The position numbers were made by a program, and so were the translations under genes. The notes under the pieces are model-generated. The model worked only from the letters and a program-made list of their open reading frames with translations, was not told the DNA's origin and searched no databases. This document shows, piece by piece, positions 542 through 14,597 of a stretch of 64,000 bases of DNA. Position 1 is the first letter of the stretch, and every line of letters begins with the position of its first letter. This DNA comes from a virus. Lineage: Duplodnaviria > Heunggongvirae > Uroviricota > Caudoviricetes. The stretch spans positions 1 through 64,000 of the IMG/VR virus record IMGVR_UViG_2671180676_000004; one strand, 5' to 3'.

Positions 542-1126
542 TAGATAAGTACAAACTATTCATAAAGTGAATTGTAAGTGCTAAGATCTGATAGTTTCCA
601 GTCGTAGACTGGAGACTCGACCTGATGGGTGGGGGTAAGCGTCACTGGCGTCAGGTTTAAAAAAGCTCACTACCAGCGTAGAACTGGTGCCGTTTAGGTG
701 TCGGGGAAGGGGGAACCAAAGTGAGCGGAGACAAGGGTCACTTTATGATTGTCGAGTCTGGGGTGTTTCGAGAGGTTGAATCCAGTACTCCCCTTCATAA
801 AGTGTGGGAAGATCTCGGTTCTGGGGTGCTGTCATCCATAACTTCCCAAGTCTAAGCTGGCAGTAGACTTAGACCATAACTTTTCAGGTTATGAAACGAC
901 CAGGTTGGTGAGGGATTTTTATACTCACCTCCCTGGGAGAGTATTACCTGAAAAGACAACCTCTCACTTCGTTCGAGGTGAACTTCACTCACTTCGTTCG
1001 TTCAGTTCAGGTTTATAAAAACCTGTTCTGGGAAGTAATTTGTTTATTTTAATAATTATTAACACGCACGCGTGTGCGCACGCGCGAGGAAAAAAAATCG
1101 GCGCGGCGCTTGATTCAGGAGTTTAT

Positions 1127-13496: not shown

Positions 13497-14597
13497 TCAC
13501 ACTGCGCGGAATGCGATCTCGCCAGGTATTACTTCGCCTTGCCAATACATTTGGGCAGCAACGCGATCTGCGAGGTCACGATAAATAGCCGTAAATTCGC
13601 TATCTGGACGACTAATAACGGTTGGTGTTCCGTTATCCAGATCTTCACGAAGAGAGATATGAAGTGGCATTTGGCCTAACAACTGCGTGTTGTATTTCTC
13701 GGCCAGTTTCTGTGCGCCACCGGTGCCAAAAATTGGCTCGTGATGACCGCAGTTACTGCAAATATGCACACTCATGTTTTCGACGATACCCAGTACCGGC
13801 ACTTCGACTTTTTCGAACATCACAATGCCTTTCTTCGCATCGATCAGCGCGATGTCTTGCGGCGTAGTTACCACAACCGCACCAGTTACAGGAATGTTCT
13901 GCGCCAGCGTCAACTGAATATCACCAGTGCCCGGCGGCATATCGAGAACGAGATAGTCCAGATCAGGCCATAGAGTTTCCTGCAACATCTGCATCAGCGC
14001 CTTGCTGGCCATCGGTCCACGCCACACCATTGCATTGTCGTCGGTGACCAGATAACCAATAGAGTTGGTTGCCAGGCCATGAGACATGATAGGTGCCATG
14101 TGAGTACCGTCCGGTGAGGTTGGACGTTGGTTTTCCGCGCCCAGCATGGTTGGAATTGATGGACCATAGATATCGGCATCCAAAATACCAACTTTCGCAC
14201 CTTCAGCAGCCAACGCCAGTGCCAGGTTTACCGCCGTGGAGGATTTACCCACGCCGCCCTTGCCTGAGCTGACGGCGATAATGTTCTTAACGCCATTAAT
14301 GCCTGGTTGGTTTTTGACGCGCTTAAGCGTGGCAATGTTGTACGACAGCTTCCAGTCAATAGCCTTTGCGCCAGTGATACGGAGCAGATCACCACTACAT
14401 TGCTCTTTCAGGTCTTCAAAAGGCTTATTCCACACGAAAGGCATGATTAGTTCGACATGCAGTGTGTCATCCATCAACGCAACATGGTGTAACGCTTTAA
14501 GCGTAGTCAGGTTGTGTTTCAGGGTTGGGTGCTGAAAATTAGCCAGCGTACCGGCTACCATTGCTCTCAGGGCATCCGGCGATTTGGACTCGCTCAT
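13497..14597 (-). CDS. apbC: Fe-S cluster carrier ATPase Mrp/ApbC
   Basis: 366 aa; P-loop SSGKGGVGKSST; MinD/Mrp family; divergent from metG as in E. coli. Confidence 0.95.
   Translation of the reverse strand: MSESKSPDALRAMVAGTLANFQHPTLKHNLTTLKALHHVALMDDTLHVELIMPFVWNKPFEDLKEQCSGDLLRITGAKAIDWKLSYNIATLKRVKNQPGINGVKNIIAVSSGKGGVGKSSTAVNLALALAAEGAKVGILDADIYGPSIPTMLGAENQRPTSPDGTHMAPIMSHGLATNSIGYLVTDDNAMVWRGPMASKALMQMLQETLWPDLDYLVLDMPPGTGDIQLTLAQNIPVTGAVVVTTPQDIALIDAKKGIVMFEKVEVPVLGIVENMSVHICSNCGHHEPIFGTGGAQKLAEKYNTQLLGQMPLHISLREDLDNGTPTVISRPDSEFTAIYRDLADRVAAQMYWQGEVIPGEIAFRAV

Follow-up and report, generated by a model that had tools for sequence, protein, structure and literature searches.

We analysed a window of 64,000 nucleotides (nt), positions 1 to 64,000 of the IMG/VR virus record IMGVR_UViG_2671180676_000004, with a focus on the block that lies between a small open reading frame (ORF) and the RNase HI gene rnhA. 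A BLAST comparison of positions 540-1130 with phage and plasmid collections identified the window as an SSU5/pHCM2-like phage-plasmid, and the block is an RNA gene specific to phage-plasmids of this type. That this structured RNA gene is genuine we regard as very probable. A previous sequence-only reading had singled out 560-1040 as a stretch of about 480 base pairs that could be a non-coding RNA or a highly structured leader for the RNase H gene. These limits almost coincide with those of the unit, whose promoter has its -35 element at 559-564 and whose conserved core ends near 1037. The neighbourhood is a block of genes for replication and nucleotide metabolism, in which an exonuclease gene and rnhA adjoin the element, and an IncFIB-type RepA replicon is located about 19 kb from it on the same phage-plasmids. 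The locus is organized as follows:

311-541, + strand: upstream small ORF of 76 amino acids (aa), three predicted helices, phrog_5343
559-587, + strand: predicted sigma-70 promoter, with -35 TTCATA at 559-564, a 17-nt spacer and an extended -10 TGcTAAGAT at 579-587
~593 to ~1040, + strand: RNA gene of ~450 nt, multi-helix
1039-1109, + strand: 3' flank kept with the element, with an A+T-rich spacer at ~1039-1062, a tract at 1063-1086 and a G+C hairpin at 1076-1109
1127-1720, + strand: rnhA (RNase HI, 197 aa; Pfam RNase_H, E = 1.6e-44), a neighbour outside the element

The query matched 12 phage records, including Salmonella phage SSU5, the Escherichia phages Cyrano and PhiR41_1 and several Klebsiella phages, as well as 687 plasmid records of PLSDB, 654 of which cover at least 80% of the query. 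The plasmids come from Klebsiella, Escherichia, Enterobacter, Salmonella (including S. Typhi pHCM2), Citrobacter and Cronobacter. Among complete E. coli genomes the block was present in 232 of 5,426 (4.3%), every copy being full length and nearly all of them residing on a plasmid of ~110 kb; in these 232 genomes the Prokaryotic Genome Annotation Pipeline (PGAP) placed no non-coding annotation over it. The relatives form two clades. Clade A shows 82-100% identity to the window and comprises the SSU5, pHCM2, Cyrano and Klebsiella lineages, and clade B, which is ~68% identical over the core, comprises a plasmid of Cronobacter sp. JZ38 and similar contigs. A second pattern scan of IMG/VR and a protein-anchored scan revealed no clade beyond A and B, and a metagenome scan for the loop motif of helix P8 returned only clade B copies, once more the L025-type phage that is described below, and one possibly chance match (L224). 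A scan of the genome collection with a pattern of 15 specified bases, which was too loose, yielded chance matches only, except for a truncated copy in a contig of Buttiauxella gaviniae ATCC 51604 (L124:4830-5163). This copy is without the first ~125 nt, starts at about window position 717 and is fused to unrelated sequence that looks coding; it was probably left over from recombination.

Relative to SSU5, pHCM2, a Klebsiella phage and a C. sakazakii plasmid, the window shows 91-95% identity in the core (616-1037), whereas the identities of the flanking genes are only 71-78% (small ORF) and 73-78% (rnhA). This strongly supports the view that the non-coding block is the most constrained sequence at the locus, and that it is under stronger purifying selection than the neighbouring protein genes. 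The conserved block begins just past the promoter-like sequence and extends to ~1098.

The earlier statement that no frame is open here was essentially right, as only short ORFs of 30-46 aa occur at 560-1040. The longest ORF on the + strand, 721-855 (44 aa), carries stops or frameshifts in four lineages (L009, L050, L051 and L086) and is without a start codon in clade B. Its variable columns are distributed over the three codon positions as 25/23/21, with no third-position bias, and no other short ORF common to both clades could be read from the alignment. The non-coding nature of the sequence is strongly supported. Two database annotations overlap the RNA and call for correction: the RNase H coding sequence SSU5_090 (L002:3363-4127) is over-extended by ~170 nt upstream into the element, and CYRAN_81 (L216:2682-2816) is a spurious 44-aa ORF call inside the element of Cyrano.

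The + strand of 590-1040 has a minimum free energy of -168 kcal/mol, compared to -138 ± 6 kcal/mol for dinucleotide shuffles (z -4.9; 0 of 100 shuffles as good), so that there is indeed more structure than in an ordinary spacer. The - strand reaches only -141 kcal/mol, the + strand being 27 kcal/mol more stable. A fold model obtained with RNAalifold and manual inspection contains 13 helices with 106 pairs, named P1-P9 with sub-helices, and was tested on an alignment of 43 distinct sequences from the two clades. Standard pairs are formed by 95.8% of the cells (34-50% in slid controls), 28 pairs have changed on both sides (3-7 in slid controls and 18.7 ± 2.6 in shuffles) and the covariation score is 0.190 (0.04-0.06 in slid controls); for each of these three measures, none of 500 shuffles was as high. 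Compensatory events have occurred both within clade A and between the clades. Two pairs of P1 illustrate this with A-U/G-C/G-U and C-G/U-A/G-C, as do U-A/C-G in P2 and changes from C-G to U-A in P3 (L086/L031) and in P6 (L051). The fold is thus kept, with covariation, across the 43 sequences. The cells within helices include 467 G·U combinations but only 34 A·C combinations, and therefore the constrained molecule is the + strand, as RNA. There is strong support for a conserved + strand fold with 13 or more helices. Its parts, together with a 5'-terminal hairpin (P0) that was left out of the alignment because its sequence differs between subclades, are, all on the + strand:

593-603 with 607-617: P0, 5'-terminal hairpin, formed by 9 of 9 representatives of subclades, which have at least 6 distinct stems
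619-657: P1/P1b hairpin with the G-rich apical part GAUGGGUGGGGG; 14 pairs, 98% of cells paired, 4 two-sided changes
665-671 with 720-726 and 684-691 with 697-704: P2 domain, consisting of the closing helix P2 (3 compensatory pairs) and P2b
739-748/795-804, 754-761/782-790 and 767-771/776-780: P3-P4-P4b arm; 7 two-sided changes
805-811 with 842-848 and 824-828 with 833-837: P5 and P5b; 100% of cells paired, 4 compensatory pairs
850-874: P6 hairpin; 100% of cells paired, two-sided changes in 5 of 10 pairs
880-889/946-955, 900-904/932-936 and 907-912/924-929: P7 domain, with outer helix, P7b and P7c
957-1003: two adjacent hairpin units, each with the loop CUCACUUCGUUCG
959-963 with 975-979: stem of P8, with the 11-nt loop UCACUNCGUUC
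980-983 with 1000-1003: stem of the second unit, GAAC with GUUC
1008-1013 with 1020-1025, extendable to 1003-1030: P9 hairpin; 3 compensatory pairs

Some of the changes in P1 arose within clade A, for example from A-U to G-C and from C-G to U-A. The P2b hairpin is kept with different sequences and has a GAAA tetraloop in clade B, and the P2 domain also holds the conserved unpaired strand ACCAGCGUAGAAC and the G-rich strand GGGGAAGGGGGAACCAAAG. The GAGG loop of P4b is invariant. Two further invariant strands, GAGAGGUUG (770-778) and CAACCUCUC (957-965), are perfectly complementary to each other and may form an alternative long-range helix in competition with P4b and P8. An invariant internal strand, GAUCUyGrUUCUGGGGU, lies within P5 (805-848). 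A pairing of the 3' tail UGGGAAGU with 841-848 was considered and rejected, as the P5 partner covaries instead. The loop shared by the twin units is invariant except for one free position (T/A/C/G), and an alternative hairpin of 974-981 with 989-996 is possible. The conserved core ends (at ~1038) with the 3' strand UUCUGGGAAGUAA that follows P9.

The repeats on which the sequence-only reading had based its interpretation are all present, although the positions quoted for the first pair were ~15 and ~6 nt too far to the right:

613-621 with 751-759: first pair, AGACTCGAC with GTCGAGTCT
850-856 with 868-874: gtctaag/cttagac
921-926 with 939-944: atactc/gagtat
1008-1025: caggtt...aacctg
963-975 and 988-1000: direct repeat CTCACTTCGTTCG

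The comparative data back two of the four pairs. The gtctaag/cttagac pair is the fully paired helix P6 with its five compensatory pairs, and caggtt/aacctg is helix P9. By contrast, the atactc/gagtat pairing, which falls within the P7 domain, is broken in the relatives L051 and L086, and the arms of the gagactcgac/gtcgagtctg pair belong instead to P0/P1 and P4, each with compensatory changes of its own. Indeed, changes of A620 or C621 are matched by their P1 partners 656 and 655, while the proposed partner 751-759 is constant. The duplicated unit CTCACTTCGTTCG is real and corresponds to the loops of the two adjacent hairpins at 957-1003.

Transcription is predicted to start at ~593-594, the first base of P0. 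In 13 subclade representatives the motif TGnTAnnAT keeps T-12, A-11 and T-7, its TG is kept except in Klebsiella, and the -35 element reads TT[TC]A..; the conserved bases are those that matter most for an extended -10 promoter. No other promoter-like site of the + strand kept its place in the alignment across the 13 representatives scanned. A generic promoter scanner missed the site of the window, which scores 8/12 plus the TG. The -35 region TTCATAAAGTG (559-569) is, in the lineage of the window, an exact copy of the 3' strand of P3 (794-804) and thus complementary to 738-748; SSU5 and pHCM2 do not share this feature. On the - strand, a promoter-like site corresponding to window positions 940-970 holds its position in clade B and reaches 10/12 there (GTGAGA, 16-nt spacer, TATAAT; L001, L011, L023 and L082) and is weak in clade A (AATACT). 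It could give rise to an antisense transcript across P7 and upstream.

Expression could be followed in published RNA-seq data for Cyrano, the element of which is 97% identical to that of the window and in which CYRAN_81 corresponds to window positions 721-855. In E. coli LF82 carrying Cyrano and grown overnight in lysogeny broth (LB), CYRAN_81 was expressed 12-fold above the prophage background (PMC9928086, Table 1). The values in the S1 Table of the same study are given as log2(FPKM+5), where FPKM stands for fragments per kilobase per million mapped reads, with two values per condition. BLB denotes LF82 in LB to stationary phase and MB6 denotes LF82 in THP1 macrophages at 6 h post-infection (PMC9928086); for the remaining labels we assume, by analogy, that B1 and B6 are bacteria without macrophages at 1 h and 6 h, and that MB1 is the 1-h macrophage sample. 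The values for the element and its neighbours are (PMC9928086):

CYRAN_81 (inside the element): BLB 6.8/6.9; B1 9.3/9.0; B6 6.9/6.9; MB1 9.0/8.2; MB6 10.35/10.30
CYRAN_80 (upstream small ORF): BLB 3.4/3.1; B1 4.6/4.2; B6 4.1/4.1; MB1 5.8/5.1; MB6 5.2/5.0
CYRAN_82 (rnhA): BLB 2.6/3.4; B1 3.9/3.8; B6 4.4/4.3; MB1 4.7/4.0; MB6 5.0/4.8

The coverage profiles in that study were plotted separately for the + and - strands (PMC9928086). These gene-level data from a relative strongly support independent transcription of the region of the element in the lysogenic (plasmid) state, with a signal 8-40 times that of either neighbour. The lack of transcription that the sequence-only reading had named as a refuting outcome is not what they show. 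The rnhA gene of Cyrano is at background, with the element 15-40 times higher and rnhA at ~2-7% of its signal in all conditions. The element is most abundant early after dilution and inside macrophages, where it rises roughly 10-fold. The same LF82 table places CYRAN_43, a 'hypothetical protein' of OV696614, 723-fold above the prophage background and far above the repressor; it may be another mis-annotated RNA or a toxin. Compensatory changes, strand-specific G·U pairs, a conserved promoter of its own and, in the 97%-identical relative, transcription in lysogens are generic marks of a structured non-coding RNA, and their presence here upholds the first of the two readings proposed from the sequence.

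The 3' flank is kept with the element. Its A+T-rich spacer (~1039-1062) is variable in length and is followed by CACGCACGCGTGTGCGCACGCGCG (1063-1086), a 24-nt perfectly alternating pyrimidine-purine tract that is palindromic, Z-DNA-prone and unique in the window. After the tract come GAGG-A8-TCG and a G+C hairpin with an A8 loop, just before the ribosome-binding site of rnhA. Conservation of the flank extends to ...GAGGAAAAAAAATCG (~1098) even where the downstream cargo differs, and the tract is conserved in clade A. Candidate roles for this flank are a terminator or processing site, an operator, or origin-like DNA.

The genes on the two sides behave differently. The upstream gene, phrog_5343, is strictly syntenic with the RNA, as in 75 of 75 IMG/VR loci that encode it the RNA follows on the same strand at a distance of 55-67 nt. 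An AlphaFold model of the 76-aa protein (predicted local distance difference test score, pLDDT, 80) gave no significant fold match in the PDB, and a Rop-like identity for this helical protein was rejected since neither a Pfam match nor a significant PDB fold match was obtained. The small ORF is at background in Cyrano lysogens and is not co-expressed with the RNA; any functional link between the two would therefore belong to the lytic programme. Downstream, the RNase HI carries a Lys/Thr-rich N-terminal extension of ~40 residues (1127-1261), the Pfam RNase_H domain beginning at residue 40. In several relatives rnhA is replaced while the element is intact: by betT in an Enterobacter plasmid (L006, 2265 onward), by a gene for a 320-aa hypothetical protein in Citrobacter (L007, 2126-3088), by small hypothetical genes in JZ38 (L001), and, in clade B contigs (L210), by a gene of 200 aa with a Tad2-like gene after it. 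The segment directly 3' of the RNA is thus a point of cargo swapping; the Tad2-like (anti-Thoeris) match at L210:4605-4916 is weak. The retention of the element next to different downstream genes, together with the expression data, rules out a dedicated leader of the RNase H gene, as had been suggested from the sequence, and no known riboswitch or leader family was matched. In another lineage from Logan assemblies (L213, also L214 and L215), the small protein is 70% identical to that of the window, and the slot of the RNA is occupied by a 714-nt non-coding spacer (L213:3226-3938; z = -5.5) followed by two RNase H paralogues. This spacer showed no BLAST or nhmmer similarity to the element, no relatives in the plasmid and phage collections and no Rfam match. 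If it is a comparable RNA, this would be a locus for interchangeable large RNAs.

The Rfam scan that the sequence-only reading had proposed matched no family: the whole window gave 0 matches to the 4,227 covariance models of Rfam 15 at gathering score, and 450-1200 at E ≤ 10 gave only chance-level matches of 12.8-21 bits against thresholds of 37-93. The latter search contained no Intron_gpI or group II intron match, and the element sits between complete ORFs. No riboswitch or cis-regulatory leader family of Rfam was matched, and ARAGORN found 0 tRNA or tmRNA genes in the window. A search for antisense targets in the rest of the 64-kb window, beyond which the phage-plasmid extends for another ~45 kb, found no complement of at least 12 nt and 11-mers at chance level, which argues against a simple antisense regulator of the phage genes of the window. 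A CsrB-like GGA sponge was rejected because GGA is not enriched (hand count), and so was an anti-Shine-Dalgarno mimic, CACCUCC at 927-933, which is not kept in clade B. The literature searched for non-coding RNAs and sequence motifs of SSU5 and pHCM2 contained no description of this RNA; a 2026 preprint on phage-plasmid heteroresistance deals with another family.

Our preferred reading of the function, to which we assign a probability of about 0.4, is that of a free-standing, lysogeny-expressed and protein-binding RNA that acts in trans. The transcript would end, or be processed, before rnhA by a non-canonical route, possibly Rho-dependent termination or cleavage, and would accumulate as a stable free RNA. 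Its action in trans, as a folded scaffold or as a decoy that binds a protein, would fall in the plasmid state of the element. The compact and nearly invariant 5' and central body (P1-P7, with its G-rich strands and possible pseudoknots) would be the functional core, and the two adjacent 3' hairpins with identical CUCACUNCGUUCG loops would be the most likely protein-recognition sites. Protein binding is favoured by a near-invariance well beyond the needs of pairing and by the adjacency of two hairpins with the same 11-13-nt loop. The 5' hairpin is of a kind associated with stable bacterial small RNAs.

Several points weigh against this reading. The interval between the RNA and rnhA contains no canonical intrinsic terminator; therefore termination must be non-canonical or the RNA processed. 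The label 'trans-acting' is a default inference. With two deep clades and shallow variation within them, the independent compensatory events are few and tertiary contacts are beyond the reach of the data, and the near-invariance of much of the sequence could partly reflect constraints at the DNA level. The expression evidence is gene-level and concerns a relative rather than the exact molecule. The order of a promoter, a structured RNA of ~450 nt, an A+T-rich spacer and G+C palindromes would suit an origin that is primed by RNA or activated by transcription as well. In another phage, a lambda-O-like initiator gene contains the P8 hairpin again. This unrelated phage of higher G+C content (L025; the same phage as L222, L052 and L017) has two hairpins with the loop TCACTACGTTC, which fits the P8 consensus UCACUNCGUUC:

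L025, 6300-6350, + strand: first hairpin copy
L025, ~13560-13600, - strand: second hairpin copy, on the opposite strand and 7.2 kb from the first

The stems of the two copies differ by the compensating loss of one C-G pair, and each copy adjoins a CG-alternating stretch like that at 1063-1086. One of them falls within the linker of an ORF for a replication initiator (phrog_16167), where CAGTGAG repeats and an A+T-rich stretch are its neighbours; it is the other copy that has the shorter stem. Judged by these motifs, the recurring hairpin points to a separable module that may be recognised by some shared factor.

The origin-like features would be accounted for if the RNA were a pre-primer like ColE1 RNA II, or if its transcription activated an origin, for plasmid-state or lytic DNA synthesis. 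Transcription would then proceed ~450-500 nt into the spacer and palindromes (1039-1109), where the RNA-DNA hybrid would be processed, with RNase H encoded next door. We consider this unlikely, even though the position in a replication gene block beside the exonuclease gene and rnhA, as well as expression in the plasmid state, would agree with it. RNA II itself is about 550 nt long and folded, with G-rich segments, and the length and layout of the element are similar. A P8-type hairpin with a CG-alternating motif in the linker of a phage replication initiator (phrog_16167) points in the same direction; the lambda ori sits within the O gene, at a comparable linker position. A precedent exists in the lysogen-expressed non-coding RNA regions that are required for the replication of extrachromosomal mycobacteriophage prophages (PMC7157519). 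However, the RepA (IncFIB-type) replicon is already present ~19 kb away, the A+T spacer and the CG tract are poorly conserved in clade B, and rnhA is dispensable at the locus. A conserved antisense promoter facing the 5' third of the RNA, as for RNA I, is also lacking: the first ~340 nt contain no positionally conserved - strand promoter, and the sole recurrent one ends at 940/941 and is strong only in clade B. The composition profile was uninformative about an origin. The low rnhA signal, at ~2-7% of that of the element, is what leaky termination would produce, and the RNA might thus be a cis-acting leader or attenuator of whatever cargo lies downstream. Premature termination in lysogens would leave an abundant short RNA, and a signal or phage factor that binds the twin hairpins would allow read-through. 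The orientation is the same as that of the downstream genes, and the conserved block ends within ~30 nt of the rnhA ribosome-binding site, with the G+C hairpin before that site. The identical-loop twin hairpins resemble the sites for antitermination proteins in lambda nut, a matter of resemblance only. Yet the downstream gene is not constant, there is neither an intrinsic terminator nor an obvious terminator/antiterminator alternative, the size and near-invariance exceed those of known leaders and no Rfam cis-regulatory family matches, which makes an attenuator decidedly unlikely.

A site that works only as DNA, for instance a boundary of recombination or cargo insertion, an array of operators or a packaging signal, and whose transcript is incidental, would explain why cargo is swapped directly 3' of the block, and would suit the Z-DNA-prone tract, the palindromes and the truncated Buttiauxella copy. 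It would not need the pairing of one strand to be kept over 13 helices, as the G·U versus A·C asymmetry and the compensatory changes indicate, nor a conserved promoter and expression in lysogens; we therefore regard it as highly improbable. Almost no credence is left for a coding function, either as a small protein (CYRAN_81, 44 aa) or as a hok-like type I toxin mRNA. The CYRAN_81 call in OV696614 speaks for it, and mRNAs of the hok family are of similar size and heavily folded. However, ORF 721-855 is disrupted in four lineages, has no clade B start and shows no codon periodicity. Going beyond the preferred protein-binding RNA, we consider it conceivable, if somewhat unlikely, that the element represents a new class of large functional RNA in enterobacterial phage-plasmids. 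This could be an RNA-primed second origin or copy-number device, in the form of an RNA II analogue beside the RepA replicon or of a lytic origin, or else an ornate RNA or ribonucleoprotein (RNP) that acts on the host or on competing phages in lysogeny; the latter form would fit the ~10-fold rise of the Cyrano element in macrophages.

Phage-plasmids of the SSU5/pHCM2 type are common in clinical E. coli, Klebsiella, Enterobacter and Salmonella Typhi and carry resistance and virulence cargo. None of their non-coding segments is better conserved than this folded RNA, which is unannotated and expressed in lysogeny. Structured RNAs that are this large and this conserved are rare in the well-studied enterobacteria and usually mark sophisticated biochemistry. 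SSU5 on Salmonella LT2, Cyrano in LF82 and PhiR41_1 on K-12 are tractable systems in which plasmid maintenance, replication and host interaction can be addressed.

Among known systems, the element shares with c4 of P1/P7, CI of P4 and CB of N15 that a non-coding RNA is made in the lysogenic state by an extrachromosomal prophage. Those RNAs are antisense molecules of ~70-100 nt with clear complementary targets, whereas the RNA described here is ~450 nt long and has no complement of at least 12 nt in the 64-kb window. The hairpins with sequence-specific loops recall lambda nut boxB and HK022 put, RNA elements that recruit antiterminators or alter RNA polymerase itself, and the P8-type hairpin occurs twice with an identical loop in the L025/L222 phage. 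However, nut and put sites are 15-70 nt long and not embedded in a conserved fold of 450 nt, the two L025 copies converge rather than diverge, and no antiterminator gene has come to light. The layout of a promoter, a folded RNA of ~400-550 nt and expression in the plasmid or prophage state resembles that of ColE1 RNA II and of the RNA-based prophage origins of cluster A mycobacteriophages (PMC7157519), and an A+T-rich and then G+C-rich region after the RNA and an adjacent RNase H gene are likewise reminiscent of an RNA II-type arrangement. The element has no homology to either, the phage-plasmid has a RepA replicon of its own, and no RNA I-like antisense promoter was found. In its overall character the RNA resembles ROOL and GOLLD, and also OLE and raiA, which are hundreds of nt long with many conserved helices and highly conserved unpaired strands (PMC5737381, PMC12286853). 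Ornate RNAs of the ROOL/GOLLD type likewise reside in mobile or prophage DNA, are expressed as free molecules and were of unknown function when found (PMC5737381, PMC12286853). The present RNA differs from ROOL, GOLLD, OLE and raiA in matching no Rfam sequence or structure, in its length of ~450 nt and in its very narrow range, the phage-plasmids of Enterobacteriaceae, and nothing here points to multimers. The RNA represents a new family among the large structured non-coding RNAs of mobile elements, which are a known kind; its range is narrow, but in clinical Enterobacteriaceae it is very common.

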